Positions 2,432-43,910 are shown, counted from the first letter of the stretch. The stretch: 49,584 nucleotides of DNA from Nanobdellota archaeon (GCA_030647965.1 JAUSIT010000028.1:1-49584); one strand, 5' to 3'. Numbers and translations are program-made. The notes: generated by a model from the letters alone, not told the origin.

Positions 2432-2511
2432 AAAAAAGCATAACGAACCCTATCTAATTGTCCTGAGCTCAATCCTGAACCGTCATTCGTTCAATAGGAC
2501 TTACTCGTTAT
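2432..2511 (-). ncRNA. Candidate ~80 nt small structured RNA
   Basis: Minus-strand BRE/TATA at 2540-2533, three nested stems, closing T6 tract at 2437-2432. Confidence 0.5.
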
Positions 2512-22072: not shown

Positions 22073-22103
22073 AAACAATATACTTCAAATAACTATAAAA
22101 GGT

Positions 22104-22289
22104 TTGCTGATGAAATGCTGAATTAAATATTCTATTAATGATGCTCGCATAATTTGCACTTCGTTAAGATATTAAGTCGCCTAGCTGCTCCTAACTTTTA
22201 TTAATGATAAATCATTTTCTCATTATTTGATACAGTATTAATTATCCACATTTGCCGCCAGGCAAATCCATTTATCCTTGCATCAGCAA
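22104..22289 (-). repeat. ~200 bp structured dispersed repeat (family A), copy 1
   Basis: Reverse complement attaataaaagttaggagcagctaggcgacttaatatcttaacgaagtgcaaattatgcgagc nearly matches ~28428-28491. Confidence 0.9.
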
Positions 22290-22348
22290 CATTATATACT
22301 CCAAAACGATTAGCCAACATTTAAAAATTAAATCAAACTTAAAGAAAG

Positions 22349-23206
22349 ATGATAGAGATGATAGTAAAGCCAAAAAGAGCTGAAAGAAGACCTTGGGAAA
22401 TGTTTTTTATAGGAATACTTTATGCATCTATTTCACTTTTGCTTGTAAGCTTTGTTTTTTCAAAAGATTCTGTTTTAAATCAATACGGGGGAATTTTAAT
22501 GATTACCTTTACTGTCATCTGTTCTCTACCATTTATGTATTATTTAATAAAATTAGAAGAAGGAAAAGATGTTGAAATTTCAAAAAGTGGGAGATTATTA
22601 AAAGAACATTCAAAAGCAATTAGTGCTTTAATTTGGCTTTTCATGGGTTTTGTTGTTGCATTTTCTTTTTGGTATTTGGTTTTGCCAGAATATACTCCTC
22701 AAAATTTTAATGCACAAATAAAAGTTTTTTGTGCAATTAATAATCCTGCTAATTTTGATTATTGCATACAACAACATGGAATTTCTTCTCCTGTAACAGG
22801 AAATGTTGCAAGACAGCAATTACTAATTAATATTTTTGCAAATAATATTTATGTTTTAATATTTACTGTTTTATTTTCATTAGCATTTGGAGCAGGGGCA
22901 ATTTTTGTTTTAGCATGGAATGCTTCTGTAATTGCTGCTGCAGTAGGTATTTTTGCAGAAAAAAGTTTAGTAAATCTACCTATTGGAATTTTAAGATATA
23001 TGATTCATGGAATACCTGAAATCGGAGCATATTTTATAGGGGCGTTGGCCGGAGGAATTATTTCAGTAGCAATAATTAGAAAAGACTTAGAAGGCGAAAG
23101 AATGTGGAGAATTTTACAAGATTCTTTATTACTTATGATAATTGCAATAGTAATATTATTTGTTGCAGCCTTAGTTGAAGTATATATTACTCCTAATTTC
23201 TTTTAG
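22349..23206 (+). CDS. SpoIIM/DUF95 family membrane protein
   Basis: IFANN, WNAS.I, HGIPEIGAY, AALVEVYIT. Confidence 0.85.
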   Translation: MIEMIVKPKRAERRPWEMFFIGILYASISLLLVSFVFSKDSVLNQYGGILMITFTVICSLPFMYYLIKLEEGKDVEISKSGRLLKEHSKAISALIWLFMGFVVAFSFWYLVLPEYTPQNFNAQIKVFCAINNPANFDYCIQQHGISSPVTGNVARQQLLINIFANNIYVLIFTVLFSLAFGAGAIFVLAWNASVIAAAVGIFAEKSLVNLPIGILRYMIHGIPEIGAYFIGALAGGIISVAIIRKDLEGERMWRILQDSLLLMIIAIVILFVAALVEVYITPNFF

Positions 23207-23250
23207 ATTTAGAATAAACTCCTATGAATTATTAATTTCTTGGGTCTTTA

Positions 23251-24243
23251 CTATCCTTCAATTCTTCTGTATGAACAGTTTCCTTTATTGTTTTCAGGCC
23301 TGTGACAAGGAAATTCCTCAAGAATTTTTTTGCTTAAATCAGATATTAAATCTCGTTTCATATTACCAACTATAGTTTCATTGCCTACACATGGGCTTAC
23401 ATCCCCGTTTCCATATATACACATATGCTCAACACACGGACTTGTTCTAAAATTACTATATATTGGGTGAATAAATCCATATTCAGAATCAACTCTTTTT
23501 ACTATCTCATTTATTCGATCAATTTCATTTTGATTTAAAACAAGACTTCTGTTAAAACTATCGCCAGTACATCTTCCTGCAGGTACATAAGTACAAAATA
23601 CAACCCAAAAATTATTATCCCGGCAATATCTTAATGTCTGTTCAACTTCATGCACATTTTTTTTGCTAACAACCATATCAAAACCTATTCTAGTTGTACC
23701 ATCTTCTTGAGTTTTATTAAAACCATGTTCAACTAGTTTTTTAATTGCTTCATTTCTTTGTTGAAAATATTTTCCAATTTTGTCTCCAACAAGCCAATTT
23801 TGATATTCAGAATTAAATAAACTGTCACATTTTGGGTATACGCTTGCACCAGAATCATATAATCTTTTTACAAATTCATCGTCTCTTAATTTTGTTGCGG
23901 CATCTGTAAATACAATCGGCACAAGGCCTGAATCTCTTGTATATTTCATTATTTCAAAAAAATTCTTATCGATTGTAGGCTCTCCTTCACCCAAATAATC
24001 AATTGCTTTTACATGAGACATTTTTGAAATCTGATTTATCGTATTTTTTATTTCACCAAAATCTAAAGTTCTTTTTTTCTTGTCAGTAAAACAATGAAAG
24101 CAATTATGAGGACATTCATGGGTCATTATTCTTGCATCTATTACTGAATTTGGCCCGAATTGCCATCCATTTAGGACTGCTCCAATTCCAATTGGAACCT
24201 TTCCTAATCCATAATATTCTTTTTCTGTAAGTTTTCTTTCCAT
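23251..24243 (-). CDS. Radical SAM protein with SPASM/twitch-like C-terminus
   Basis: CPHNCFHC, GEGEP, C...GDVSPC...C...C. Confidence 0.9.
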   Translation of the reverse strand: MERKLTEKEYYGLGKVPIGIGAVLNGWQFGPNSVIDARIMTHECPHNCFHCFTDKKKRTLDFGEIKNTINQISKMSHVKAIDYLGEGEPTIDKNFFEIMKYTRDSGLVPIVFTDAATKLRDDEFVKRLYDSGASVYPKCDSLFNSEYQNWLVGDKIGKYFQQRNEAIKKLVEHGFNKTQEDGTTRIGFDMVVSKKNVHEVEQTLRYCRDNNFWVVFCTYVPAGRCTGDSFNRSLVLNQNEIDRINEIVKRVDSEYGFIHPIYSNFRTSPCVEHMCIYGNGDVSPCVGNETIVGNMKRDLISDLSKKILEEFPCHRPENNKGNCSYRRIEG

Positions 24244-24353
24244 TTTATTTTTAATCCTATTTATTTGTTGGGCATAGAATTATAGATAAAACCTTGCTTG
24301 TAAATTTTTATCAAAATAACAAAATTTAAATACTAAATGTTACTATGATATAA

Positions 24354-25349
24354 ATGGTTTTAAAACTTGACACAAAAGATTTAAGGATTCTAGCAGAACT
24401 AGACAAAAACGCCAGACAGTCAAACCGCAAGATTGGAAAAAAAGTTGGTTTAAGCAAAGAAGTTGTGAAATATAGAATTGACAAACTTATTGAAAATAAA
24501 ATTATAGTAAGATTTCATACTATAACTAATTATTTCAAATTAGGAATAATGAAGTTCAAACTTTATCTAAGACTTACAAATATAAATAAAAAGAAAATAG
24601 AAGAAATTGCTAATTATTTTAAGAATAATAAAACAACTGAATGGGATGTTTTTTGCACAGGACGGTGGGATATAATTATAGGTTTCCTTGTGCATAATGT
24701 TAATGAATTCGATGATGAAATACAAAATGTAATGAATAAGTACTCAAAATATATTCAAGAAAAAGCAGTTACAACTACTCTTCATCTTGTTCATCAGGAA
24801 AGAGGATTTCTGGGCAAAGGAAAAAATCCCCCTATTTTTCATACATTAAAAGATAAAAAAGAAGATATTGATAATATAGATTTGGAAATATTAAAAATTC
24901 TTGCAAATAATGCGAGAATGCCTATAATAGATATAGCTGAAATAATAAAAACCACTCCAAGAATAGTCCAATATAAAATCAAGCAATTAGAAAAGAAAGG
25001 GATAATACTTGCATATAAAGCTCATCTTAATCCAAAGCAAATTGACAGGATTTTCTGCAAAGCAATTCTTTATCTTACGAATCTTACTCAAGAAAAAGAA
25101 AAAAAATTTATTTCTTATGCGTCTTCAATTCCTGATGTAGTCTGGCCTCAGAAAGTTTTAGGAGATTGGGATTTTGAGCTTGATTGTGAAGTTGAAAGTT
25201 ATGATCATTTTCAGAATATCTTACTTGACCTAAAAGAAAAATTTCCAGAGATCATAAAGGATTACGAATTCTGCATAGTTTCAGAAGAATACAAGCTTGA
25301 TTTTTTTCCCGGGGCTTACAGAGAGAAGTTAATTAATAAAGAACTTTAG
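24354..25349 (+). CDS. Lrp/AsnC regulator with tandem-duplicated HTH+RAM domains
   Basis: LDTKDLRILAELDKNARQS and IDNIDLEILKILANNARMP; G.WD in both halves. Confidence 0.9.
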   Translation: MVLKLDTKDLRILAELDKNARQSNRKIGKKVGLSKEVVKYRIDKLIENKIIVRFHTITNYFKLGIMKFKLYLRLTNINKKKIEEIANYFKNNKTTEWDVFCTGRWDIIIGFLVHNVNEFDDEIQNVMNKYSKYIQEKAVTTTLHLVHQERGFLGKGKNPPIFHTLKDKKEDIDNIDLEILKILANNARMPIIDIAEIIKTTPRIVQYKIKQLEKKGIILAYKAHLNPKQIDRIFCKAILYLTNLTQEKEKKFISYASSIPDVVWPQKVLGDWDFELDCEVESYDHFQNILLDLKEKFPEIIKDYEFCIVSEEYKLDFFPGAYREKLINKEL

Positions 25350-25408
25350 AAAAACGAGTTAAACTAAATCACCGAAACTATTTTAAATCAAACAATTTTG
25401 TATTTTTC

Positions 25409-25543
25409 ATGGCAAAATACAATTGCAGTACTTGCGGTTATTCTACAACAAGCGGCAGACAACCAAAAAAATGCCCTTATTGCAGCAGAGAAAACACAAT
25501 GGAAGAGGAAGAAAACGCAGAAGAAATTCTAAGCAGATCTTAA
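25409..25543 (+). CDS. 44 aa Zn-ribbon/rubredoxin-like protein (absent from ORF track)
   Basis: MAKYNCSTCGY...PKKCPYC...EEEENAEEIL; TATA-like TTTTAAAT ~25 nt upstream. Confidence 0.75.
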   Translation: MAKYNCSTCGYSTTSGRQPKKCPYCSRENTMEEEENAEEILSRS

Positions 25544-25582
25544 AATCCAGTGTTATTAAAATAGTACTAAAAACTTAGAGAA

Positions 25583-28327
25583 ATGGATAAACAAGAAAAT
25601 ATTATTGATGAGAGGAAAAAGAACTTTATTTCTTTTTTAAAAAAAGAATATGTTTGGGTAGGGATTTTATTAATTATTGCACTTATTCTTGGAATTTATA
25701 TAAGAGCCCTTCCAATGACAGACCACGGAGGAAATCCTGGCTTATGGGATATTACCACTAATAGCTGGACTTTAGGTCCTGATTTAGATCCGTTTTTATT
25801 TTTAAGATATGCAAAAATAATAGCAGAAACTGGCTCTTTGCCATCAATAGATATGTTTAGAAATGTTCCTTTAGGTTTTGATACTTCTTTAGAAACTCCT
25901 TTAATTTCCTATGGTATTTTTTGGTTATATTCTTTTTTACAAATTTTTGATTCACAAACTAGCATAGATTATGCAGCTGTTTTATTTCCAGTTATTATGT
26001 TTGGATTTACAATTATATTTTTCTTTTTGTTTGTAAGAGAAATTTTTACAAGAAAAGGAGAAAAAGAAGAAAATATTAAAGCAAATATTATTGCATTAAT
26101 TTCAACTTTTTTAATGATTGTTTCTCCTGCATTTTTATCAAGAACTGTTGCAGGAATTCCTGAAAAAGAATCAGCAGGTTTTATGTTTATGTTTTTAGCT
26201 TTTTATTTATTTATAAGTGCATGGAAATCTGAAAAATTAAGAAATACGATTATTTTAGGAGCTTTAGCAGGAATTGCAACTGCTTTAATGGGTTTATCCT
26301 GGGGGGGAGTTATGTATTTATTTATTGGAATTGGAATTGCAAGTTTAATTGCTTTTACACTAAATAAAATTCATAAAAAAGAGTTTATTGTTTATTCATT
26401 ATGGATGTTTTTTTCTTTTATAACAATATTATTATTTTCAAATAAATATCCAATAAGGTCTCTTTTAGAATCAATGGACACAGGTTTAGCATTTTTGGTT
26501 TTCTTTATACTTATTGTTCATTTTGCTTTATGGAATACTAAATTAAAAGATATTAATTTTATAAATAAAATTAAACTTCCAAAAAACATAGTTTCAGTTA
26601 TTATTGCTTTTATTTTATTATTTTTTGTTATTATTATTTTATTTGGGCCTTCATTTGTTTCTGATAAAATTAATGTAATTAATCAACTGATGTTTCAGCC
26701 AGTTACTGGAAGATGGAATACTACTGTTGCTGAAAATCGACAGCCATATTTTACAGAATGGGTTGGAAACTTTGGACCATTTTTAAAAAATATACCTGTT
26801 TTATTCTGGTTATTTGCAATTGGCTCTGTTGTTTTATTTAGAAAAATACTAAATAAAATAAATAAAAAAGATGCTTGGATTTTAACATCCTCTTATGTAT
26901 TTTTCTTTTTAGGAATGGTATTTTCAAGATATGCTGCTCATCCAAGTTTATTTGATGGAGATGGTTTATTGAGTAAATCATTTTTTTATATTTCTGCATT
27001 ATTGCTAATTGGTTTAGCAGTTTATTATTATTTAAAATATAATAAAGAAGAAAATAAGGGTTTGGAAAAAATAGATTTTGAATATATATTATTATTTTCA
27101 TTATTTATTTTATGTTTATTTACAGCAAGAAGTGCAGTTAGATTAATTATGACCTTATCCCCTATTGCAACAATTTTTGTTGGTTATCTTATAATAGAAT
27201 CTATTGACCAATTTAAAAAAGCAAAAGATAGCACCATGAAAACAATAATGGCAATAGCAGTTATAATTCTTTTATTATTAAGTATGTTTGTTTTTTGGAA
27301 TTTTTATAATTCTATAAAAGCAGAGTCTTATAATTTTGTTCCATCAGGATATACTCAACAATGGCAAAAAGCAATGGATTGGGTAAGAATAAACACTCCA
27401 ACAGATGCAGTATTTGCACACTGGTGGGATTATGGATATTGGGTTCAATCAATAGGAAATAGAGCAACTGTTACAGATGGAGGAAATGCCATTGCATACT
27501 GGAACTATTTAACAGGAAGATATGTTTTAACAGGAGATAATCAACATGATGCTTTAGAATTTTTACATACACATAATGCAACTTATTTATTAATTGATTC
27601 AACAGATATTGGAAAATATGGAGCTTATTCAAGTATTGGGAGTGATATAAATTTTGACAGATATTCATGGATACCTGTTATGGTTTCAAATCAAAATGAA
27701 ATACAAGAAACAAGTGAAGGAATTACAAGAGTTTATCAGAGCCCAAGTTATATTGATGAAGATATAAATTATAATTTAAATGGAACAAAAATATTCTTGC
27801 CTTCTGGAAAAGCTGCATTAATCGGAGTTATTTTAGAAATTAAAAATCAAAATGGTTCCATGGTTTTTAAGCAACCGGACGCAGTATTTTTTAATAATAA
27901 TCAGCAAATAAAAATTCCTTTAAGATATGTTCAGTATAAGGGGCAACTTTTTGATTATAAACAAGGATTAGAAGGAACATTTAGAGTAACTGAAAATATA
28001 ATACAAGGGCCACAAGGAGTTCAGGTAGATAGTAGTGGTGCAGGAATTTATATTTCACCAAGAATAATGAGGGGAATGTTTGCACAAATTTATCTTTTAA
28101 ATGATCCTTATAAAAAGTTTGACAGCCTTAAACTAGCTTATTCAGAACCAAGTCCTGTTGTTGCAAGTTTAAGATCCCAAGGAATGAAAGATATTGATGA
28201 TTTTGTTTATTTTAATGGAATCCAAGGACCTATAAAAATCTGGACAATTAATTATAAAGGCAATGAAGTTGTTAACCCAGAATATCTTTTAAGAGCACCC
28301 CCTGCAAATATTACTTGGCAGTTTTAA
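25583..28327 (+). CDS. aglB: Oligosaccharyltransferase AglB/STT3
   Basis: DLDP, R.VAG..EKE, TVAE, WWDYG, multi-TM N-half. Confidence 0.96.
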   Translation: MDKQENIIDERKKNFISFLKKEYVWVGILLIIALILGIYIRALPMTDHGGNPGLWDITTNSWTLGPDLDPFLFLRYAKIIAETGSLPSIDMFRNVPLGFDTSLETPLISYGIFWLYSFLQIFDSQTSIDYAAVLFPVIMFGFTIIFFFLFVREIFTRKGEKEENIKANIIALISTFLMIVSPAFLSRTVAGIPEKESAGFMFMFLAFYLFISAWKSEKLRNTIILGALAGIATALMGLSWGGVMYLFIGIGIASLIAFTLNKIHKKEFIVYSLWMFFSFITILLFSNKYPIRSLLESMDTGLAFLVFFILIVHFALWNTKLKDINFINKIKLPKNIVSVIIAFILLFFVIIILFGPSFVSDKINVINQLMFQPVTGRWNTTVAENRQPYFTEWVGNFGPFLKNIPVLFWLFAIGSVVLFRKILNKINKKDAWILTSSYVFFFLGMVFSRYAAHPSLFDGDGLLSKSFFYISALLLIGLAVYYYLKYNKEENKGLEKIDFEYILLFSLFILCLFTARSAVRLIMTLSPIATIFVGYLIIESIDQFKKAKDSTMKTIMAIAVIILLLLSMFVFWNFYNSIKAESYNFVPSGYTQQWQKAMDWVRINTPTDAVFAHWWDYGYWVQSIGNRATVTDGGNAIAYWNYLTGRYVLTGDNQHDALEFLHTHNATYLLIDSTDIGKYGAYSSIGSDINFDRYSWIPVMVSNQNEIQETSEGITRVYQSPSYIDEDINYNLNGTKIFLPSGKAALIGVILEIKNQNGSMVFKQPDAVFFNNNQQIKIPLRYVQYKGQLFDYKQGLEGTFRVTENIIQGPQGVQVDSSGAGIYISPRIMRGMFAQIYLLNDPYKKFDSLKLAYSEPSPVVASLRSQGMKDIDDFVYFNGIQGPIKIWTINYKGNEVVNPEYLLRAPPANITWQF

Positions 28328-28348
28328 GTTTTTAATCTTTCAGATATA

Positions 28349-28567
28349 GCGTGCTAAGGCAAGATATATGGAATTTCTTAGCAGAAATTACGATTTATTA
28401 ATATTGAAATGAAAATGATTTTAGAGAATTAATAAAAGTCTAGGAGCCGCGAGGCGACTTTATATTCTAACGAAGTGCAAATTATGCGAGCGAGCCGTAG
28501 CGAGCGAAAAAGTTTTGCTCTTCTATCTTGCGTTACTTATGCAAGAGCAAAACTTTTTGAGCATCAG
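28349..28567 (+). repeat. Family A repeat, copy 2, with nested 52 bp hairpin (28507-28558)
   Basis: Shares GGCAAGATATATG..AATTACGATTTATTAATA with the 43.7 kb copy and its 3' half with the 22.1 kb copy. Confidence 0.9.
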
Positions 28568-28603
28568 ATATAAATTTAAAAGCTATAAGTTATATTTTAA
28601 GAT

Positions 28604-29629
28604 ATGAATTCAATACTGTTTATATCAATATTAGTGAGCTTTATTGCAGCACTATTAATCATGCCAAGATGGATTAGAAAGTGCAATAAAATCGGGCTTT
28701 TATGGGAAGATATGAATAAATACAAACACCCTAAAAATGTTGCTGCTTCTGGAGGAATCGTAGTTGTAATGGCCTTTATTTTAGGAGTTTTATCTTATGT
28801 GGCAATAAGAACTTTTATTATTAATGATTTAAATGGAATAAGTTTGCAGATTTTTGCATTGCTTAGTGTTGTTTTAATTTTAGCAATTGTTGGCTTGACA
28901 GATGATTTACTTGGCTGGAAACATGGAGGATTATCTGCACAATTTAGAATTTTTTTAGTTTTATTTGCTTCTATTCCTTTAGTTGTAATAAATGCAGGAA
29001 CAAAGCTTATTGAAATTCCTTTTTTTGGAGAAATTGAATTAGGATTATTATATCCTTTAATAATTATTCCACTAGGAATAACTGGCGCAACAACGGTCTA
29101 TAATTTTTTAGCAGGTTTTAATGGACTAGAAGTTGGACAGGGAATTATAATTATTTCATTTTTATCATTTATATCCTATGTTATGGGTTCTGCATGGCTT
29201 TCTTTAGTTGGGCTATGTATGGTTGCTTCTTTGTTAGTTTTTTATTATTATAATAAACATCCTGCAAAAGTTTTTCCAGGCGATGTTTTAACATATTCTA
29301 TTGGAGCAGTAATTGCATGCATGGCCATTTTAGGAAACTTTGAGAGAATAGCTATTTTTGTGTTTATTCCATATATTATAGAATTTATATTAAAATCAAG
29401 AGGCAATTTAAAAAAACAATCTTTTGGAATTCCAAATAAAGATGGAAGTTTAGAAATGCCATATGATAAAATTTATGGACTAACCCATCTTTCAATTTTT
29501 ATATTGCAAAAATTTAAGAAAAAAGTTTATGAAAAAGATGTAACTTATTTGATATTTTCATTCCAAATAATAATCTGCTTGCTTGCTTTAGTAATCTTTA
29601 AAGAATCTTTATTTAATGTAGTTGTTTAA
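28604..29629 (+). CDS. aglH: UDP-GlcNAc:dolichol-phosphate GlcNAc-1-P transferase (AglH/Alg7, MraY family)
   Basis: DMNK, GLTDD, NFLAGFNGLE, PAKVFPGD. Confidence 0.9.
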   Translation: MNSILFISILVSFIAALLIMPRWIRKCNKIGLLWEDMNKYKHPKNVAASGGIVVVMAFILGVLSYVAIRTFIINDLNGISLQIFALLSVVLILAIVGLTDDLLGWKHGGLSAQFRIFLVLFASIPLVVINAGTKLIEIPFFGEIELGLLYPLIIIPLGITGATTVYNFLAGFNGLEVGQGIIIISFLSFISYVMGSAWLSLVGLCMVASLLVFYYYNKHPAKVFPGDVLTYSIGAVIACMAILGNFERIAIFVFIPYIIEFILKSRGNLKKQSFGIPNKDGSLEMPYDKIYGLTHLSIFILQKFKKKVYEKDVTYLIFSFQIIICLLALVIFKESLFNVVV

Positions 29630-29633
29630 AAAA

Positions 29634-30605
29634 ATGAAACTAAAAATTAAAAAATATCTTCCATTAGCAGGTATTGCTATTTTTATATATTTATTATTCA
29701 AAATAAATATCTTAAATGTTTTTTCTGAAATAGAAAAAGCAGATTTAACTCTTCTTTTTATTGCAATACTACTTACTTTTGTTTATGAGATATTTCAAAC
29801 ACTAAAATGGTTTTTAATTGCACGAAAGCAAAAAATTAGTGTTTCTTTTTTAGAAGCATTTAAAATTAATTTTATGACTAATTTTTATGGCTTTGTAACT
29901 CCTTCAAAAATTGGAACAATAATAAGGGCAGATTATTTGAAAAAATATACAAAAAATATTGGAAAAGGTATAAGCAATTTTACAATAGATAAGTTGCTTG
30001 ATTTAACCTCGCTGTTTGTATTGGTTGTGTTTTTTATTTTAGTTTTTAGAAACAAATTTAATTTTATTCCATTAAATTATGTATTCTTCTTTGGATTTGT
30101 TCTTTTAACTTTATTTTTAGTATTTTATAATAAAGAAAGAAGCAAATTTTTACTAAGAATTGTTTATAGAAAATTTGTGCCTAAAAGAATGCAGGAAAAA
30201 GCTAAATTAACTTTTGAATCATTTTATGAAGACTTACCTACAAAGAAATTTTTATTTTTGGTCTTTTTAGTTAATTTAATTGATTGGATTATTATTTATC
30301 TTGTAAACTATTTTGTAGGATTATCTCTTGGAATAAATCTTGATTTAATGTATTTCCTAGCAATATTGCCTATTGCAACCTTAATTGCCCAAATTCCAAT
30401 TACAATTAATGGGCTTGGAACAAGAGAGGCAACAATGATATATTTATTTGGTTTATTTGGAATTGAAGCTGCAAAAGTATTTTCAATGTCAATTTTAGTA
30501 TTATTAATCTCGGGCGTCTTGCCATCTATAATAGGAAGTTTTTTAACTTTCAAAAACAAGGATTCTAGTAATGGAGAAGCTAAGCATAATAATACCGGCA
30601 TATAA
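29634..30605 (+). CDS. Lysylphosphatidylglycerol-synthase-TM / UPF0104 flippase-like membrane protein
   Basis: KW, TPSKIG..R, DKL.D, IPITINGLGTRE. Confidence 0.85.
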   Translation: MKLKIKKYLPLAGIAIFIYLLFKINILNVFSEIEKADLTLLFIAILLTFVYEIFQTLKWFLIARKQKISVSFLEAFKINFMTNFYGFVTPSKIGTIIRADYLKKYTKNIGKGISNFTIDKLLDLTSLFVLVVFFILVFRNKFNFIPLNYVFFFGFVLLTLFLVFYNKERSKFLLRIVYRKFVPKRMQEKAKLTFESFYEDLPTKKFLFLVFLVNLIDWIIIYLVNYFVGLSLGINLDLMYFLAILPIATLIAQIPITINGLGTREATMIYLFGLFGIEAAKVFSMSILVLLISGVLPSIIGSFLTFKNKDSSNGEAKHNNTGI

Positions 30606-31356: not shown

Positions 31357-31418
31357 GTTTTTACAAGAATATAGCACCATATACAAATCTTTAAAATAGA
31401 TATTTTCTATCTTATTTA

Positions 31419-33823: not shown

Positions 33824-33832
33824 AATAATAAG

Positions 33833-34975: not shown

Positions 34976-34991
34976 ATAAAATAAAAAACAA

Positions 34992-36104: not shown

Positions 36105-37318
36105 AAACACTAATATTGTTTATTGATGCATTCAGCTTTACAGATTTAAATGAAAAAAATGCTCCTTTTATTTTTAATCTTGCAAAAAATGGAAGTTATG
36201 GGCCCTTAACAACAATTCCTGCAGGATACCATATTGAATATAGTATGCTTTCAGGTTCTCTTCCACTAAAACATAATGTATGGACATGGTATTATCTTAA
36301 AAAAAATTCTTCATTTTCAAAAATAAAATATATTAAGCCATTAATAAAATTACTGAACAAAAATGAAAAAATGCAAAGAAAATTAATTGATGTTTATATT
36401 AATCTATTAAGACTTTTATCAGGAAAAACAAGATTTTTAAAAACAAACAAGATTCCAATAAATTTGCTTGAAAAATTTGAAATTGCAGTTGACAAATCTT
36501 ATGTTGATCATAATCCATTGAATGTTCCAACACTATTTGATATTTTTAGAAAACAAAATATAAATTATGTTGCAATGGAATATCCAACAATATCAAATAA
36601 AAATAAAACATGGTTTTATTCTGGAAAAGATGATTTCAAACAGCTGGAAAAAACAGAAAAATTGCTTGAAAAATACGATGTTGTTTATAACCATATATGG
36701 AATTTAGATTCAATTGAACATAAATATGGCTTACATAGTGCTGAAGCATTAGAACATATTAAAAAAATTGATTCTTATGTTGAAAAAATAGTATTGAGTC
36801 AAAGAGAACCAATTAAAATAGTAATTTTTTCAGACCATGGCGGATGCAATGTTAATCAAACAAAAAATATACTAGATATTTTAAAAGGATTTAATGTAGA
36901 TTATTTTATTGGTTCAACAACATGCCAGATTTGGTTTAAAGAAGATAACTTAAAAGAAAAAGAGAGACTTAAAAATATTTTAAAAGATCATGATTATTTG
37001 ATTTATGATAAGAAAAATATTGAAAAAGAGCTAAAAATACCATATAAAAGAGAGTTTGTAGGGGATATTTTAGCCTGGGTAAAGCCAGGGGAGCAAATAT
37101 ACCCTGATTTTTTCAGAGATACAGATAAGGTTAAGTCAATGCATGGATATACTCAAAAAGTTCCTGAAATGGCAGGTATTTTTATTATGAATGGGTTTGA
37201 CAAAAAAGATAAAAAAAATAAAATAAAAGAAATGATGCTATATGATATCGCGCCTACAATTTTAAAAGGATTTAATATGGAGATTCCTAAAGAGTGGGAT
37301 GGAAAAGCGAGAGTTTAA
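36101..37318 (+). CDS. Alkaline phosphatase superfamily (nucleotide pyrophosphatase/phosphodiesterase-like) protein
   Basis: FIDA, D..EH.YG, FSDHG, MHGY, DIAPTIL. Confidence 0.85.
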   Translation: MKTLILFIDAFSFTDLNEKNAPFIFNLAKNGSYGPLTTIPAGYHIEYSMLSGSLPLKHNVWTWYYLKKNSSFSKIKYIKPLIKLLNKNEKMQRKLIDVYINLLRLLSGKTRFLKTNKIPINLLEKFEIAVDKSYVDHNPLNVPTLFDIFRKQNINYVAMEYPTISNKNKTWFYSGKDDFKQLEKTEKLLEKYDVVYNHIWNLDSIEHKYGLHSAEALEHIKKIDSYVEKIVLSQREPIKIVIFSDHGGCNVNQTKNILDILKGFNVDYFIGSTTCQIWFKEDNLKEKERLKNILKDHDYLIYDKKNIEKELKIPYKREFVGDILAWVKPGEQIYPDFFRDTDKVKSMHGYTQKVPEMAGIFIMNGFDKKDKKNKIKEMMLYDIAPTILKGFNMEIPKEWDGKARV

Positions 37319-37346
37319 GTTAGTATTTAATTGAATTTATTTTCAT

Positions 37347-38936
37347 TCAACCGCTTACACTTCTATTAAATTCATAAATTACTAAGACAGGAGATTGCTG
37401 GCCTTGTATTGTTTGACTATATGCTTGAACAGGGACTAGTAAATCTTGGTGATTTTGAGGGTATTCTAAAACCCATTGAGGATGACTTTCAAAAACAGAG
37501 AGTATGAAAAATCTTGGATTTAATTTTTCTAATCTATTAATTTCAAAATCAGATTCATTTACACCAAAATCATATGAAGACCTTTCTGAATAGTATTGAA
37601 TTTGAGGCATTGAAGCAGTTATTACAATATCTTGAGGATTTGAATTTTGTTTTAACCATAATCCTGCTTCTTTTACTTCTGCATAAGAAGTTAACTTATT
37701 GTCAATTAAGCCATTTCCAAAAGTATAGTTTGAATAAAATAAAAATATAACTAATACAAAAATAATAAATCCTGCAACTTTTTTGCTTTTAATAAATTTC
37801 TCAGACATATTTTCAAGGGTCATGATGGGGGAAAGTGCAATTAAAAATAAAAATGGAAGACAGGGAATAACATATCTTTGTTCAACATAATCTGTAATTC
37901 TTCCTAAAATTAAAAATGAAGCAACAATCCATACTAAAATAAATAATTTCTTTTGAAGCTCTTGATTTTGAAATATTTTATCAAAACCTAAGACTAAATC
38001 TGAAAAAAAGATGAAAATACCTAGAATAAATAAAATAAATATAATTGGGAACTTATCTGCAGAAAGAATATATGGAAGATTTTTGAAATAATCTAACATT
38101 GTTGAAAAAGATCTTTGATCAGCAGCAGTTTGTTCAATGCCTTGTTTTCCAAATCCAAAATAGTGAGCCATAATGTCTGTAACAGGATTTCCGAAATGCC
38201 CCCAGTATAAAAATAAAAGAGGAAGTAAAACAAGTGCGAAAATAGCTATAGAAATCCATAATTGCTTATTTTTAACAAATTTGAATTTTTCTTTTGTAAA
38301 AGCATAAACTAAAAAAGCAGGAGCAAACATTAAACTCTGCATTCTTGTTAAAGCAGCAAGGGCTAAAAATAATCCAAACAAGTAAATATACTTATTTCCC
38401 TGATTTTTAACATATCCTTTCCAAAAAAACAAAGTTGCTGTTAAAAGAAAAAAAGCAGCAGGAATTTCTGTTAAAGTTCTTCCTGTAAAAAATAAAATTG
38501 TCCAGGATAAAACCATGCCTATACTTACATATAAAGAAATTTTTTTATTAAACATTTCACTAATTAATAAATAGGTAACTAAAACCAATCCTGTTGAAAA
38601 TAAAACTGCTACAAATCTTATTCCTGTTTCTCCAAATCCTAATTTAAATAAAAATGCGCAAATTAAAGGAAATAAAAAACCCCTCCTATAGTACCATATA
38701 TCTAAAAGATTAAGACCAAGACCCCATTGTTTTGCAGTTGCTAAATAACTTGCCCCATCATACCATAGTGGCTGATTCATTGTTTTAAGAAAAATTAAAA
38801 ATCTAATGACAAAAGCTGCGATTAAAATTAAGATAAAAACTCTGGTATAAGGATCTTTAAACCATGAAGAAATTTTATCTTTAAATTTGTTTTTTCTCTG
38901 CTCAATTATTTCGTTAGATTCACTTGAATTTTCCAT
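37347..38936 (-). CDS. GT-C fold glycosyltransferase (PMT/ArnT-like)
   Basis: LWYDGASY, multi-TM, QRYVIP.LPF, soluble C-domain. Confidence 0.85.
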   Translation of the reverse strand: MENSSESNEIIEQRKNKFKDKISSWFKDPYTRVFILILIAAFVIRFLIFLKTMNQPLWYDGASYLATAKQWGLGLNLLDIWYYRRGFLFPLICAFLFKLGFGETGIRFVAVLFSTGLVLVTYLLISEMFNKKISLYVSIGMVLSWTILFFTGRTLTEIPAAFFLLTATLFFWKGYVKNQGNKYIYLFGLFLALAALTRMQSLMFAPAFLVYAFTKEKFKFVKNKQLWISIAIFALVLLPLLFLYWGHFGNPVTDIMAHYFGFGKQGIEQTAADQRSFSTMLDYFKNLPYILSADKFPIIFILFILGIFIFFSDLVLGFDKIFQNQELQKKLFILVWIVASFLILGRITDYVEQRYVIPCLPFLFLIALSPIMTLENMSEKFIKSKKVAGFIIFVLVIFLFYSNYTFGNGLIDNKLTSYAEVKEAGLWLKQNSNPQDIVITASMPQIQYYSERSSYDFGVNESDFEINRLEKLNPRFFILSVFESHPQWVLEYPQNHQDLLVPVQAYSQTIQGQQSPVLVIYEFNRSVSG

Positions 38937-39022
38937 TAATATTCTTGTATAATTGGGTTTTTATTTATTACTTATATGAGAAAAATTCATTTAAAAGAAT
39001 TTATGTAGGGGATTTTAGGTGA

Positions 39023-39910
39023 TTATTTTGTGCTTTCTACCCTATCCCATGCATCCACTTTATAGTCTTTTTTTACATATAATTTAAAGAAACTAACTAG
39101 CCAGATGTATAATCTAAAAGGAAATAAGCTTAGTGTCCAATAAAACTCTTTAAAACTTTTATGATATGAAAATATTTTATAGCTTTCAAGAATTTCATTT
39201 TTCAGTGTTTTCATTCTTGGAACATTTTTTAAATCTGCATATTGAGAAAGAGTTTCATGAGCTTTAGCTGTTCTCTTTTTTTGATCTAAAAAATCTTTTA
39301 AATTAGAGGGATATTTAACATAAACTTCTGCTTGAGGAACATATTTTATTTTATAGCCTTTTTGATAAAATAATATCGGGACAATTGTATCTTCTGCTGT
39401 TTCCTGAGGAATAGACTTAATAACATTATTTCTAAATGCCCATAAATAACCTGAACATTCTAAAAATTTTCCTTTTTTATTTCTGTCAAATCTTAATCTA
39501 TGAGCTGCATAGCATAATAAATGAGCCCAGTACCCATATTTATTATCTTTAGAATTTGATGGAACTGGCTGGCCTGTAACACATCCAACTTCTTTATTTT
39601 CAAATTCTTTTAAGATTTCATTTATTGAATTTTCAGATGCATAAACATCCCCATCAGTCAAAACAATTATATTTCCTTTTAACTTTGGCAATAGCAAATT
39701 TAAAGCAAAAGTTTTGCCTTTTCCAGGGTCTTGAAAAACCTTTATTTTTTTGTTCTTTTTTGCATAGCTTTTTGCAACATCTATTGTTTCTTTATCTGGA
39801 GCAGAAACTATTAATTCGTATTTTTCTTTAATATTCTGGCGTGTTATTGCAGATATTGCCTTGCCTATTGTTTCTGGCTCCTTATAGGAGGTTATGATTA
39901 TTGAGATCAT
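39023..39910 (-). CDS. GT2 glycosyltransferase
   Basis: GK..ALN, TDGD, AED, QKKR. Confidence 0.9.
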   Translation of the reverse strand: MISIIITSYKEPETIGKAISAITRQNIKEKYELIVSAPDKETIDVAKSYAKKNKKIKVFQDPGKGKTFALNLLLPKLKGNIIVLTDGDVYASENSINEILKEFENKEVGCVTGQPVPSNSKDNKYGYWAHLLCYAAHRLRFDRNKKGKFLECSGYLWAFRNNVIKSIPQETAEDTIVPILFYQKGYKIKYVPQAEVYVKYPSNLKDFLDQKKRTAKAHETLSQYADLKNVPRMKTLKNEILESYKIFSYHKSFKEFYWTLSLFPFRLYIWLVSFFKLYVKKDYKVDAWDRVESTK

Positions 39911-39960
39911 AATCAACAAACTACCGATAGATTTAAATATGTTTTTAGAAAGTTTATTTT

Positions 39961-40350
39961 ATGAAATACCCATTAGATGAGCTAATTGACAAGAAGTCAA
40001 TAATTCAGCTTAAAACAGAAAGAATTGAAGATAGTACTGACAGGGAAAGATTAAAGGGGGAGTTAAAAGATTATTCTCAAGCTATTGAAGAGTATATTCT
40101 AGGGGAGGTTTGCAATCCTGAACAAGTTCAAAATTGGTATAAAAGACTTTATGAAGCAAATGGAAAAACATGGGATTTAGAAGTAAATATAAGAAAAGGC
40201 CAGCTCGGGACAATGAGCTTAGAAGAAGTTGGAAGAACTGCAATTAAAATAAGAGAATCAAATGGAGTAAGAGTTAAAATAAAAAGTGAGATTGTAGAAG
40301 CAACAGGAATTGGATATAAAGATATTAAGATTAATCATGCTTCTCAATAG
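39961..40350 (+). CDS. Helical hypothetical protein (DUF6165/DUF4254-like)
   Basis: ELIDK.SI..LK.ERI, N...WDLE..IR, N..R...K..I pattern. Confidence 0.6.
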   Translation: MKYPLDELIDKKSIIQLKTERIEDSTDRERLKGELKDYSQAIEEYILGEVCNPEQVQNWYKRLYEANGKTWDLEVNIRKGQLGTMSLEEVGRTAIKIRESNGVRVKIKSEIVEATGIGYKDIKINHASQ

Positions 40351-41718
40351 TTATAGATCAAAACCATAAAGTTCTTTATCTGCTGTTTTTCTAAAATTTT
40401 TATACATTCTTGAATAAGTTTCATTTACTTCTTTGTTTGGAATTTCTAAAAGTTCAATTAATCTTTCTTGAGTATAGACTTCAGGATATTTAACTGCTAA
40501 TGCAAATAATTTCTGAAGATTTACTCTTTCATTTTTATTTGGAATTTCAATAACAGACTGATCAAAAAAATTATTTCCTATATCTGAAAAATCTCCTTTG
40601 TAAACTCCTTCCTTAACACATCTTTCACCTAATTCTGTTTTTGGATAGGGCTGAAATAAACTAACCCAAGAATAATTTGGCTGGCACTGCCTATTTAATT
40701 CTAAAGTTTCTAAATCATCTTCTAAACTAGTGAACGGCAAGCCGATTATATTTTGAAGCATTACTTTAATCCCTTTTTCTTTTAATTTTTTAACAGAATC
40801 TATTATTTGTTCATTAGTCATATTTCTATTTAATATATTTCTTCTTACATAGTCAGAGCCTGCTTCAGAAGCTATATGAACACTATAACATCCTGCATCT
40901 GAAAGAGAATTAATAATTTCATCATTTACTAAATTTGCTCTTAAGTGTGAATGAAATGGCAAATTTATTTTTTGTTTATATTTTTCTGAAAATTCTTTAA
41001 CCCATTCTTTATTTAAAATAAAAGTATCATCTTGAAAATAAATAAATTTTGTAGGAGATTCTTCAACTACTTGTTTAACTTCGTCTAAAAGATTATCAAC
41101 AGATCTAAATCTTACTCTTTTTCCTTTATCTTGATATATTTCTGAATAAGATGCATTAAAACAATAAGAACAATTAAATGGGCATCCCCTTGAAGCAATA
41201 AAATGTTTTATAGGCCCATCACCAATATTAGGATATTTAAAAACAAGTTCTCTATCTGGAAATGAAATTTCATCAAGATTAGCAATTAAATTTCTAGGAG
41301 GATTAGAATAAATTTTATTATCTTTTTTGACCCATAAATTTTGAATATTAGTAATATCCTGTTTTTTTTCAAGTTTATTACATAACTCTGAAAAAGAAAG
41401 TTCTCCTTCTCCAATATTTATTGCATCAAAACTTGAATCTTTAAACCATTCTGGAAAAAATGTAGGGTGAGGCCCCCCTGCAATTGAAAATTTATCATAT
41501 TTTTTTAGTTGGCGATTAGTATTATCAAAAAATTGATGGTCTCCTGTAATCAAGCTATAAGCCAGTATATCTGGAGAAAACTCTTCTACCTTATTTTCTA
41601 AATTTTCTGTTGTTAGTACTAAATCTGTTGAATGGCCCTGTTTTTTTAGTGAAGATGAAAGGTACATCACCCCTAAAGGTTCGATATTAAAAGGCTTTGA
41701 AATAAATAATACCTTCAT
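40351..41718 (-). CDS. B12-binding-domain radical SAM protein
   Basis: EPLG.MYL, GGPHPT, GEGE, SRGCPFNCSYC, DDTF. Confidence 0.92.
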   Translation of the reverse strand: MKVLFISKPFNIEPLGVMYLSSSLKKQGHSTDLVLTTENLENKVEEFSPDILAYSLITGDHQFFDNTNRQLKKYDKFSIAGGPHPTFFPEWFKDSSFDAINIGEGELSFSELCNKLEKKQDITNIQNLWVKKDNKIYSNPPRNLIANLDEISFPDRELVFKYPNIGDGPIKHFIASRGCPFNCSYCFNASYSEIYQDKGKRVRFRSVDNLLDEVKQVVEESPTKFIYFQDDTFILNKEWVKEFSEKYKQKINLPFHSHLRANLVNDEIINSLSDAGCYSVHIASEAGSDYVRRNILNRNMTNEQIIDSVKKLKEKGIKVMLQNIIGLPFTSLEDDLETLELNRQCQPNYSWVSLFQPYPKTELGERCVKEGVYKGDFSDIGNNFFDQSVIEIPNKNERVNLQKLFALAVKYPEVYTQERLIELLEIPNKEVNETYSRMYKNFRKTADKELYGFDL

Positions 41719-41793
41719 GCTAAATGCACAATAATAATGTTTATAAATTTAATAATCTATTTTCGTAATTGTATAAAGGTAACAAAATAACCA

Positions 41794-43671
41794 ATGAAAG
41801 CACTAATACTCGCTGGCGGAAGAGGAAGCCGGTTAAACGAATTAACAAAAGACAAAAACAAAAGCATGTTAGAACTATTTGAAAAACCCCTTATTGAGTA
41901 TAATTTAGGGCATGCTTTTGAAGCAGGTGTTGGCGAGATTATAATTGTTGTGGGTTATAAAAAAGAAGATATTATCAAATATGTAGGAAATAGCTATAAG
42001 GGGATAAAAGTCAGCTATGTTGTTCAAAAAGAGCAAAGAGGGGTTGTTAATGCTATTGAAAGTGCAAGAAAAGCAATTGGAAAAAGTGATTTTATTCTTA
42101 TGCTGGCTGATGAAATAGTTGTTGATGCAAAATTAAAAGAAATGGCTGAAAAATTTAAAAAACAAGAGCTTTTTGGAATTTGTGGAGTAACTTTTGAAAC
42201 AGATAAATCCAGCATTGGAAAGACTTATTCTTCAATGGTTAATGAAAAAGGAAGAGTTTTCAGGTTAATAGAAAAACCAAGATTCCCAATAAATAACATT
42301 AAAGGAACAGGGCATTGTATTTTGAAAAATGAAATTTTAGATTATATTGAAAGAACCCCTATAAATGCAAACAGGGGAGAAAGAGAGTTAGTTGATTTAA
42401 TTCAGTGTGCTGTTGATGAAGGAAAAAAAGTTTATGTTTATCCTATAACAAAAGCTTATGTTAATGCAAATACACAAGAAGATTTTGATTTAGCAAAAGA
42501 AATGATTAAAAAATCAAATCCAAGAGTTTTAATTGTTCATACTCAAATGAAATATTTAGGTGGAGCTGAATTGCTTATTGTAGAATTATGCAACTGGCTG
42601 ACAAAAAAAGGAGTAAAAAATGACATATTAGCTTTATCAAAATCAAAAGAAGTTGAAAATTCTCTAATTAATACAAATATAATTATCCCAAAGCACAATA
42701 TTGATTTGTCTCCCCCTGGATTTAAAAATTCTAAAGATATTTTAGATTTTATAAAAGTATATAGAGGAGAATTAAGAAAATTAGCAAAAGAATATGATGT
42801 TATTAATTTTCATAATTTTCCTGCAACTTGGACATTATTTCCAAGAAAAAAACCTTGTGTCTGGATGTTAAATGAACCTCCAAATTTATGGAGCAAGCCA
42901 AATGCAAGCTTTTCATTGAAAATGCTAAATAAAATAAGAAATTATGTAGATAGAGAAATTATTAGAAATTCAGTAGATATTATTTGTGTTGCAGACGATT
43001 TTAACAAAGAAAGAGCAAAAATAAGATATAAGAAAAATCCAAGACTTTTTTATTATGGTGTTAATTATGATTTTTTCTCTAAAGGAAATGCTGAAAAAGC
43101 AAGAAAAAAATTTAATTTAAAAAATAAATTTATAGTTATTCAATCTGGAATGCTTACTGAACAAAAAAATCAACTAGAAAGCATAAAAACAATTAACCAT
43201 GTAAAAAAAGAAATTCCAAATATCTTGCTAGTTTTAGCTGGAAAAGCAGATGAAGATTATAAGAAAAAATTAAATAATTATATTTTAAAAAATAATTTAG
43301 AAAAATATGTTTTATTTACAGATAATTTAAACAGAGAAGACTTAAGAGATTTATATGAGGCAAGTGATGTAGGTTTATTTCCTATTGGAAAGCAAGGAGG
43401 ATGGCTTGCACCATTTGAAATGCTTTGTTCTGAAAATCCAATAATTGTTTCAGAAGATTTAGGTGCTGCTTCTATAATTAAGAAAAATGAATTAGGTAGT
43501 GTAACAAATAATTATACAGATGCACTAATTAAAATTTATAAAAATAAACAAGAATATAAAGATCAGGCAAAAAAAGCTGCATTATGGATTAGTAAAAATC
43601 TTGGATGGAATGTTTTTGCAGACAAAATGATTAAGGCATATAAAGATGCATGGAAGATGCATCGGGGATAA
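41794..43671 (+). CDS. Sugar-phosphate nucleotidyltransferase fused to GT4 glycosyltransferase
   Basis: LAGGRGSRL..LT...K, EKP, RGE.ELVD; then GGAE, KNQ, PFE GT-B domain. Confidence 0.9.
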   Translation: MKALILAGGRGSRLNELTKDKNKSMLELFEKPLIEYNLGHAFEAGVGEIIIVVGYKKEDIIKYVGNSYKGIKVSYVVQKEQRGVVNAIESARKAIGKSDFILMLADEIVVDAKLKEMAEKFKKQELFGICGVTFETDKSSIGKTYSSMVNEKGRVFRLIEKPRFPINNIKGTGHCILKNEILDYIERTPINANRGERELVDLIQCAVDEGKKVYVYPITKAYVNANTQEDFDLAKEMIKKSNPRVLIVHTQMKYLGGAELLIVELCNWLTKKGVKNDILALSKSKEVENSLINTNIIIPKHNIDLSPPGFKNSKDILDFIKVYRGELRKLAKEYDVINFHNFPATWTLFPRKKPCVWMLNEPPNLWSKPNASFSLKMLNKIRNYVDREIIRNSVDIICVADDFNKERAKIRYKKNPRLFYYGVNYDFFSKGNAEKARKKFNLKNKFIVIQSGMLTEQKNQLESIKTINHVKKEIPNILLVLAGKADEDYKKKLNNYILKNNLEKYVLFTDNLNREDLRDLYEASDVGLFPIGKQGGWLAPFEMLCSENPIIVSEDLGAASIIKKNELGSVTNNYTDALIKIYKNKQEYKDQAKKAALWISKNLGWNVFADKMIKAYKDAWKMHRG

Positions 43672-43687
43672 AAATTTTCTAATAATT

Positions 43688-43910
43688 TGATGCTCGCTTC
43701 GCTCGCATATGATGTGCCTGATGGCAAGATATATGAAATTTTCTAGCAAAAATTACGATTTATTAATAATTCTGATACAGAATTTCTGGGTAGGATTTTT
43801 ACTAATAAATCGTTAGGAGACGCCAAAAAGTTTTACTCTTACAATAAGTAACGATAATAGAAGAGTAAAACTTTTTCAGTCGACTTAGTATTATCACAAA
43901 GTGCTAAATT
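43688..43910 (+). repeat. Family A repeat, copy 3, with nested 52 bp hairpin (43825-43876)
   Basis: Homologous to the 28.3 kb and 22.1 kb copies. Confidence 0.9.

Follow-up and report, generated by a model that had tools for sequence, protein, structure and literature searches.

A probable MITE-like family of modular hairpin repeats in the small genome of a Nanobdellota archaeon

The intergenic spacers of a Nanobdellota archaeon (GCA_030647965.1) are densely populated by short modular repeats, which probably represent a lineage-restricted family of decayed, non-coding and non-autonomous mosaic elements resembling MITEs, i.e. transposable elements of the miniature inverted-repeat type. The family was encountered in a stretch of 49,584 nucleotides (JAUSIT010000028.1:1-49584, in the following ‘the window’), for which an original prediction made from the sequence alone had described a structured repeat of about 200 bp in three intergenic copies. 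These copies were thought to be either a MITE-like or repetitive extragenic palindromic (REP)-like element or a multicopy non-coding RNA. The figure of three was a large undercount, as the same modules occur in 119 clusters across the genome. The MITE/REP-like interpretation agrees with the high intergenic copy number, the occurrence in both orientations, the terminal inverted repeats on full-length relatives, the truncated and nested copies, and the presence of the family in only 2 of 151 genomes. The genome itself measures 982 kb in 45 contigs, has a GC content of 28 % and is 85 % complete; it carries an archaeal marker set (Pfam), with STT3/AglB, aIF-2B and a SecY with Sec61-type plug among the encoded proteins.

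Modular organization and genomic distribution

When copy 2 of the window was compared with its own genome by BLAST, 50 matches were obtained in separate blocks of the query, and three blocks were recognized once the flanks were added. Iterated nhmmer profiles of the modules A, B and C gave 62, 79 and 88 non-overlapping hits, respectively, in 118 clusters. Two further modules were exposed by masking these three and comparing the intergenic regions all against all: D, located upstream of A (47 profile hits), and T, located downstream of B (24 profile hits). Altogether, 300 module hits in 119 clusters were found in 108 intergenic regions on 37 of the 45 contigs, amounting to 13.3 kb or 1.35 % of the 982 kb. 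Although 86 % of the genome is coding according to crude open reading frame (ORF) calls, 226 of the 229 A, B and C hits are intergenic, and about one in ten intergenic regions is occupied (108 versus roughly 1,034 gene-pair junctions).

On one strand, the modules invariably follow each other as D, A, B, T; truncated forms are numerous, and C occurs as a nested module. Both D and T are present in 21 copies: six of these measure 162-181 nt and are free of C, 12 measure 225-234 nt with one C, and three measure 280-298 nt with two. The ends of the full-length copies form a 12-bp terminal inverted repeat, best preserved as TGTTAAGTAAAC...GTTTACTTAACA, and these two sequences are well kept at both ends in only part of the 21 copies. 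Most A copies are preceded by a small hairpin, termed h. A and B either abut via a shared ATTAAT or are separated by an AT-rich spacer of 25-104 nt. In terms of coding capacity, the full elements measure 162-298 nt, and only a frame of nine codons was read by eye across module A.

When the left half of the element (D, A) was aligned to the right half (B, T) in reverse complement, a match in three collinear pieces was obtained, which is suggestive of a left/right inverted symmetry of the whole element. Provided that this symmetry is genuine, the A-B spacer is the centre of a long imperfect palindrome, which would account for its free variation. A role of this spacer as a guide was considered and discarded, as the 11 spacers of 25-104 nt showed only matches of 14-19 nt elsewhere in the genome, the longest of them on a repeat end.

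With respect to the neighboring genes, the orientation of B is random, with 23 sense and 24 antisense copies in spacers between tandem genes, besides 15 copies between convergent and 13 between divergent genes. The types of occupied intergenic spacers correspond to those of gene-pair junctions in general (chi-square p 0.25); compared to spacers of at least 60 nt, a mild depletion of divergent spacers was detected (p 0.047). An integron attC array, which is characterized by uniformly oriented sites that separate successive gene cassettes beside an integrase, was rejected on the basis of orientation, as copies point both ways on most contigs.

Covariation of the hairpin stems

The compensatory stem change of the original prediction, aatttct-TAGC-agaaatt in copy 2 against atttgcc-TGGC-ggcaaat in copy 1, is real and general, and the covariation persists and grows in the larger alignments of A, B and C. 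Module A contains a 7-bp hairpin closed by C-TAGC-G. Its 47 complete hairpins fall into 23 stem variants, 12 of them fully paired (for example AATTGTC/GACAATT, ATTTGCC/GGCAAAT and AATCTCC/GGAGATT), and 310 of the 329 stem cells are Watson-Crick pairs.

In the case of module B, the frame GGAG-NN-GNNA-NN-CGAC was recognized. Among 42 copies, the three inner pairs include 21 cells changed on both sides. Over all six pairs, 25 cells were changed on both sides as opposed to 5.1 in shuffles, and none of 500 shuffles reached this value; when the register was slid as a control, pairing dropped from 88 % to 7-55 %. The same alignment shows 9 invariant and 18 nearly invariant columns at a mean column identity of 75 %. 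As a kink-turn, the motif bound by L7Ae, consists of a three-nucleotide bulge beside tandem G·A pairs, it was rejected for the B hairpin, where the G·A/A·G step is a symmetric 2x2 step without bulge.

Module C has a 16-bp stem, in which 1219 of 1303 cells are Watson-Crick pairs. Compensated swaps were found at two positions, and pair 6-48 is occupied by GC in 60, AT in 19 and CG in 4 copies; position 11-43 behaves as unconstrained.

The mismatches were then used as a strand test, as a G·T mismatch corresponds to G·U in an RNA of that strand, whereas A·C becomes a wobble pair only on the opposite strand. No strand bias was found: G·T and A·C mismatches number 3 and 8, respectively, in A, and 34 and 45 in C. 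Moreover, the loop of A reads TNGC on the strand where the loop of B reads GNNA, so that both hairpin tops correspond to a single motif, CTAGCG/CGCTAG, in opposite orientations. This fits a DNA element with inverted symmetry rather than one RNA.

Finally, about 6 % of the A stem cells (19 of 329) are not Watson-Crick paired, and nearest neighbors are about 9 % divergent. By a rough estimate, neutral decay after insertion gives a similar share of broken pairs, and selection on the resident copies is therefore not required by these data. Diversified master copies, each with a paired stem, would suffice to produce the covariation, and the near-invariant columns of B fit either view.

Hairpin C as a younger, nested layer

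Module C is a hairpin of 52 nt with A5 and T5 runs on its two sides, and it is a second, younger element layered upon the first. The mean pairwise identity of A, B and D is 76-77 %, with nearest neighbors at 87-91 % and no identical pair. In the case of C, the median nearest-neighbor identity is 96 %, and 10 copies have an identical twin.

The positions of the 88 C copies are varied; copies abutting modules on both sides were counted once per module, so that the following numbers need not total 88. The apical loop of B is the site of 23 copies (19 in one relative orientation and 4 in the other) and the 3' arm of the A hairpin that of 10. Six copies are located between ACG and AAGTGC of B (B position 47), four immediately 5' of A and two at single other junctions. 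The remaining class of 45 is without a directly adjacent detected module and includes copies inside an unrelated repeat family. At the junctions, at most one duplicated base was read by eye. A general preference of C for hairpin tops was rejected, as the complementarity between the 8-nt flanks, determined for 87 C copies, did not exceed that at random intergenic positions (mean 4.05 versus 4.39); only the sites in A and B stand.

Seventeen clusters consist of C only, and an enrichment of such clusters at gene 3' ends was not seen (convergent 0, divergent 5, tandem 9). A viral origin was rejected, as an exact-pattern scan for C in viral contigs found no occurrence. Within the window, the C copy with its T5 run between aglB and the next glycosyltransferase gene might separate the transcripts of these two genes.

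The three copies in the window

All three copies predicted for the window are present, and they display the same order of elements when aligned over their common core. The unit of about 200 bp is itself a composite, made up of modules A and B, to which hairpin C may be appended or in which it may be nested. Exactly three clusters were found in the window, namely A-B (copy 1), A-B-C (copy 2) and A-[B 5' half]-C-[B 3' half] (copy 3). Their parts are listed in Table 1. The module matches are not due to chance (nhmmer E 4e-5 to 6e-14), and a covariance model of B likewise scores copies 1 and 2.

Table 1. Parts of the three repeat copies, numbered from the first letter of the window
Copy	Part	Position (strand)	Sequence or description	Evidence or remark
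1	h	22278..22294 (-)	small 5' hairpin TTGC-TGAT-GCAA	sequence; 9-mer TTGCTGATG inversely repeated at 22103-22115
1	module A	22237..22281 (-)	conserved GCAAGGATAAATGG, 7-bp hairpin ATTTGCC-TGGC-GGCAAAT, then ..ATAATTAAT	nhmmer E 5.4e-8, model positions 1-44
1	A-B spacer	22206..22236 (-)	31 nt, AT-rich; ‘variable loop’ of the original prediction	centre of the left/right inverted symmetry
1	module B	22155..22205 (-)	ATTAATAAAAGTTAGGAG-CA-GCTA-GG-CGACTTAATAT....ACGAAGTGCA	nhmmer E 7.7e-13; covariance model E 2.4e-9
1	tail T2	22139..22154 (-)	AATTATGCGAGCATCA	common to copies 2 and 3 only
2	left part	28335..28358 (+)	CTTTCAGATATAGCG and h hairpin TGC-TAAG-GCA	alignment; diverged counterpart of D 3' part
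2	module A	28359..28402 (+)	AATTTCT-TAGC-AGAAATT	nhmmer E 4.1e-10
2	A-B spacer	28403..28427 (+)	25 nt	
2	module B	28428..28479 (+)	GGAG-CC-GCGA-GG-CGAC	nhmmer E 2.1e-13; covariance model E 4.1e-9
2	tail T2	28480..28506 (+)	GCGAGC repeated (AATTATGCGAGCGAGCCGTAGCGAGCG)	sequence
2	module C	28507..28558 (+)	hairpin with 16-bp stem, AAAAAGTTTTGCTCTT..loop..AAGAGCAAAACTTTTT, appended past the tail	nhmmer E 5.6e-14; fold
3	tail T2	43688..43711 (+)	inverted, at left end (TTTGATGCTCGCTTCGCTCGCATA)	sequence
3	module A	43724..43767 (+)	AATTTT-CTAGCA-AAAATT; h hairpin GCC-TGAT-GGC immediately upstream	nhmmer E 1e-9
3	B 5' half	43801..43824 (+)	ACTAATAAATCGTTAGGAGACGCC, broken at apical loop	too short for profile; placed from the 3' half and 23 similar B::C junctions
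3	module C	43826..43876 (-)	nested in B hairpin loop	nhmmer E 2.9e-10; fold
3	B 3' half	43877..43904 (+)	CAGTCGACTTAGTAT....ACAAAGTGC	nhmmer E 4e-5, model positions 24-51

The gene contexts are divergent, tandem and convergent, as predicted and as read from the ORF table. Copy 1, on the minus strand, is located between the divergent genes of an aIF-2B-family protein and a SpoIIM-like protein. Copy 2 lies between a tandem pair, an aglB/STT3-like gene and a GT4 glycosyltransferase gene; its left part begins 8 nt past the stop codon of the former and its module C lies 46 nt upstream of the start codon of the latter. Copy 3 separates the convergent genes of a nucleotidyl/glycosyl-transferase fusion and a radical-SAM protein. 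The B hairpin of copy 1 is short and combines a loop of the GNNA type with a G·A/A·G tandem step. The spacer of copy 1 shows partial similarity to the spacers of copy 2 and of contig C19:37102-37131, and otherwise no significant match in the genome.

The window copies belong to the spacer-bearing kind and retain, upstream of A, a stretch that corresponds in diverged form to the 3' part of D. Regarding their ends, the inverted TTGCTGATG of copy 1 was found as predicted (22103-22115 and 22278-22289). The predicted inverted terminal motif TGATGCTCGC is present at the right end of the minus-oriented copy 1 (22139-22148) and again, from 43691, on the left side of copy 3, at its end; the end of copy 2 is GAGCATCA, with only 8 of 10 positions matched. 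From composition, TGATGCTCGC is expected 0.26 times.

A private tail, ATGCGAGC..., is common to the three window copies and found on no other copy of the repeat family, with three of its six occurrences in the genome being those in the window. The three window copies are therefore each other's closest relatives, and they may be of local origin. The GCGAGC-rich tail (28480-28506, 22139-22154 and 43688-43711) was likewise observed in the window copies only, among all repeat copies of the genome, and once in inverted form.

Folding of whole copies gave z-scores of -0.10 for copy 1 and -1.32 for copy 2, which are unremarkable, and of -3.56 for copy 3, due to hairpin C. Thermodynamic stability was consequently rejected as a sign of structure, the values of copies 1 and 2 being non-significant.

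Phyletic spread

The original prediction had proposed a covariance-model search, and the outcome agrees with a lineage-restricted family: among 151 genomes, which represent the taxonomic family by one genome for every genus and include this one, two matched. The B model found 58 copies in this genome (G000) and 8 in a genome of a different genus of the same taxonomic family (G029). In the set of 61 relatives, which includes this genome, the same two matched and the other 59 gave no match. In G029, the B and C hairpins are diverged and the GGAG..CGAC frame is retained.

An exact B pattern had no hits in genome_contigs, which is described as covering 185,579 species with a single genome each, and was found on two metagenome contigs, each with an h-A-B unit. 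The C pattern was detected once, in the metagenome-assembled genome of a Candidatus Woesearchaeota (CAZWNN010000010.1, L077:540-680), in a much more GC-rich setting. This C-like hairpin is flanked by other small hairpins, one of which, the GC-rich GCGTGAC-TAGC-GTCACGC, bears the TAGC loop of module A. The Woesearchaeota label of this genome agrees with the DPANN affiliation assumed in the original prediction.

Search for a transposase

Y1 (RAYT) transposases (PF01797) gave no matches in this genome, with control genomes positive. A weak rve match led to a protein of 401 amino acids that combines a DDE_Tnp_IS240 domain (46 bits) with a zinc finger of the SWIM type (contig C9:412-1617, minus strand, L074). 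Its gene occurs at least twice, as a second, partial copy with 97 % protein identity was found at the start of contig C7. Homologues of this IS240-type transposase occur in 67 of the 151 genomes of the taxonomic family and were not found in G029; the transposase therefore does not track the repeats.

Interpretation and alternative explanations

Based on these observations, we favor a MITE-like origin, with the following mechanism. The full element is D - h - A - centre - B - T, with a centre of 0 to 104 nt and a length of 162-181 nt, bounded by TGTTAAGTAAAC and GTTTACTTAACA. Its halves appear to be loosely inverted copies of each other, and the centre would hence be free to vary. Hairpin C later spread genome-wide, into the A and B hairpins and elsewhere. 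The copying machinery probably reads the shape of the hairpin together with conserved flanking bases and not the sequence of the stem, and many master lineages with differing yet paired stems would therefore have been propagated. The copies would have arisen by transposition, probably through an enzyme supplied in trans from outside this assembly. The repeats may, in addition, affect neighboring genes.

Several results weigh against this explanation. MITEs are usually defined as non-coding elements of about 50-800 bp with terminal inverted repeats of at least 10-15 bp, a flanking target-site duplication, dispersed and mainly intergenic copies and a related autonomous element. Autonomous elements with the same ends, which the original prediction had suggested to look for, were not found in this 85 %-complete genome. 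Here, Y1_Tnp, DDE_Tnp_1, DDE_3 and DDE_Tnp_IS1595 gave no matches either, and the TnpB-type domain gave sub-threshold matches only. The sole clear transposase, the IS240-type enzyme, was rejected as a partner since its one definable end is unlike the repeat ends and its phyletic pattern differs from theirs. As for a target-site duplication, a TTAA duplication is indistinguishable from the palindromic end of the inverted repeat, and other flanks mismatch. A metagenome contig (L078) compared for filled versus empty sites is neutral in this respect, its flanking genes being not syntenic downstream. No presence/absence polymorphism was observed, so that mobility is probable rather than directly seen. 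Recognizable D and T ends are missing from all three window copies, which carry short inverted motifs only (TTGCTGATG in copy 1, and the TGATGCTCGC motif). The inverted symmetry of the element rises 1-2 standard deviations over shuffles per piece (scores of 18-22 versus a mean of about 15, standard deviation 3). Lastly, the near-invariant columns of B amid a likeness of about 75 % could also be accounted for by a host function.

A rival explanation for the covariation is selection on RNA folding, i.e. the modules would be structured-RNA genes or cis-elements, such as a multicopy small RNA or hairpins for mRNA stability or processing. The strong covariation in the stems of A, B and C is what such selection would produce. 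The B hairpin also looks the part, as GNNA-type loops (here GCTA, GCGA, GCCA, GATA and GAAA) and tandem G·A steps (here the conserved G·A/A·G of GGAG/CGAC) are typical RNA motifs. The A5-stem-T5 layout of C has the shape of a two-way terminator, and the cited passage on archaeal termination names oligo-U tracts as its driver (PMC8716108). Nevertheless, we consider the RNA explanation unlikely. The mismatches lack a strand signature, no single strand gives RNA-like loops for both A (TNGC) and B (GNNA), the orientation with respect to genes is random, the C-only clusters show no enrichment at gene 3' ends and copies 1 and 2 fold unremarkably. Many copies are truncated, and the restriction to two genomes points in the same direction. 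No Rfam family was matched, whereas by its own terms the original prediction would have been refuted by such a match: the copies gave no hit at the gathering threshold in a search of the whole window, the best match of copy 2 at E up to 10 reached 24.5 bits versus a threshold of 54.3, and two full-length relatives gave nothing at E up to 0.1. The multicopy non-coding RNA of the original prediction was thus left without support. For annotation this calls for caution, as covariation in a few intergenic copies is insufficient for calling a regulatory RNA.

If both strands matter, the mismatch types are expected to be symmetric, as they are, which brings in resident host sites at the DNA level: hairpins or cruciforms in the manner of REP/BIME, bound by a chromatin, topoisomerase or replication protein and kept by selection in place. 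The strongly conserved columns of B and the occupation of about one in ten intergenic regions agree with such sites. On the other hand, a core role in the cell is hard to reconcile with their restriction to 2 of the 151 genomes, truncation and interruption by C affect many copies, even within the conserved hairpins, and the share of broken A pairs is, by the above rough estimate, similar to that of neutral decay. We therefore give this explanation only a slight chance. Even less credible, to the point of being very improbable, is the idea that the copies specifically serve the glycosylation genes of the window as leaders, promoters or terminators. Copies 1 and 2 are indeed upstream of and codirectional with the aIF-2B-family gene and the GT4 gene, respectively, and AT-rich, TATA-like strings occur in A and B; but copy 3 is located between convergent genes, and 116 further clusters stand beside unrelated genes without orientation preference, so that the genome-wide distribution contradicts this idea. 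The original prediction had also suggested a recombination substrate around the glycan locus. This appears weak: exact matches between the copies extend over no more than 24, 19 and 10 nt, which makes the copies poor recombination substrates, and as the family is spread over the whole genome, nothing ties it to glycan genes. The repeats accordingly carry no specific message on the glycosylation genes of the window.

In case the modules are more than debris, two further readings were considered, which together we regard as rather doubtful. The modules could be substrates of an undescribed, shape-reading mobilization system of DPANN archaea. This system would recognize folded hairpins by their C-TAGC-G top and fixed flanks, would leave no target duplication and would be without a known transposase family in the genome. 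Or else the host could have co-opted the modules, and C would then stop transcription in both directions, as a mobile signal in a genome of very short spacers.

Comparison with known repeat systems

By description rather than by sequence, the closest analogues appear to be BOX, RUP and SPRITE of the pneumococcus, and bacterial MITEs such as Correia also appear close. The pneumococcal BOX has the order boxA-boxB-boxC, and we know of no mobilizing enzyme for BOX-type repeats or for the present family. The cited passages on Streptococcus pneumoniae describe BOX, RUP and SPRITE as short, non-coding intergenic repeats that are modular, cluster and insert into each other, with SPRITE having a terminator-like hairpin (PMC10969869). 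Shared with these are the fixed order of modules and the mutual insertion, and hairpin C resembles that of SPRITE. In contrast, the present host is an archaeon, and the full element has a 12-bp terminal inverted repeat and a loose overall inverted symmetry; homology at the sequence level is not expected.

In the case of Correia and of the enterobacterial ERIC, a 127-bp imperfect palindrome, transcripts fold as long imperfect hairpins and nearby genes are affected incidentally; for Correia, the target duplication (TA) is clear and an IHF site is present. Correia/NEMIS of Neisseria reach copy numbers above 100 per genome and undergo RNase III processing according to the same source passages (PMC10969869). 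The present family is similar to Correia/NEMIS and ERIC in its length of about 100-200 nt, its terminal inverted repeats and its more than 100 intergenic copies per genome. It differs from Correia in that no target duplication is demonstrable and in that internal covarying hairpins with conserved loops are more prominent.

Short covarying hairpins, fixed flanking bases and little or no target duplication are traits of REP/BIME (RAYT, Y1) and of the hairpin-ended mini-elements of IS200/IS605. Covarying stems with fixed flanks, intergenic mosaic clusters and, in the case of C, a minimal or absent target duplication are likewise features of the present family. Unlike in REP/RAYT systems, a Y1 transposase was not found in this genome, where TnpB-type matches remained below threshold, no conserved tetranucleotide is evident beside C, and the older element has terminal inverted repeats, which are absent from REPs. 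REP elements are mentioned in the cited passage (PMC3184786).

Regarding archaea, the MITEs of Sulfolobus are derived from known IS elements, whereas no parent IS is known for the present family. Hosts of archaeal MITEs named in the cited passages include Sulfolobus (SM1-4), Halobacterium and others (PMC10969869). In the cited part of a MITE census, the highest densities among archaea are those of DPANN genomes, one of them being ‘a Woesearchaea genome’ with 105 MITEs/Mb (PMC11602168). Like archaeal MITEs, the present repeats are non-coding, multicopy and genus-restricted, and their 119 clusters per 0.98 Mb are close to the 105 per Mb from that part of the census. A high MITE density in this lineage is thus already on record in the form of counts (PMC11602168); the cited part of the census gives counts only. 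A literature search yielded no account of how the modules are arranged, of hairpins that covary or of a nested hairpin element, with the supplementary tables of the census (PMC11602168), which may list these sequences, outside its coverage.

The interest of the family is moderate and lies in its density in a minimal genome and in a hairpin covariation that is unusually clean. The genomes of DPANN archaea are tiny and gene-dense, and little selfish DNA is usually attributed to them; here, about 1.35 % of a genome of about 1 Mb and about one in ten intergenic spacers are taken by a two-layer system of hairpin repeats. Moreover, the dozens of stem variants with fixed loops and flanks constitute a clean covariation data set, which could reveal what the mobilizing enzyme reads.

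Other observations

An unrelated repeat family of about 130 nt, ‘E’, was noticed at L069:186-304 (G000:C28:29785-29903) and also on L070, L071, L072 and L073, with a coverage of up to about 20 matches per base in the intergenic all-against-all search. It consists of a long hairpin TCAGAAATTAA...TTAATTTCTGA, followed by CATCCTAAAAACAAG, a GC-rich hairpin and a T7 run. Copies of E start at the edge of the intergenic region and may overlap with the 3' end of the upstream gene. Several of them contain hairpin C, and E has no Rfam match.

A tRNA match of 132 nt, which would accommodate an intron, was found at L061:1633-1764 on the plus strand (G000:C10:45471-45602), 47 nt downstream of a full-length D-A-C-B-T element.

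In the window itself, positions 2441-2510 (minus strand) give a full-length match to the Rfam family DUF3800-X RNA (58.4 bits versus a threshold of 38.2). Its neighbors are a nucleotidyltransferase-like ORF (1741-2424) on one side and, on the other, the gene of a UvrD-type helicase (2596-4497), with no adjoining DUF3800 gene. The ORF at 1741-2424 falls just under the Pfam cut-offs, with 23.3 versus 23.6 bits for DUF6036 and 21.6 versus 31.2 bits for NTP_transf_5.

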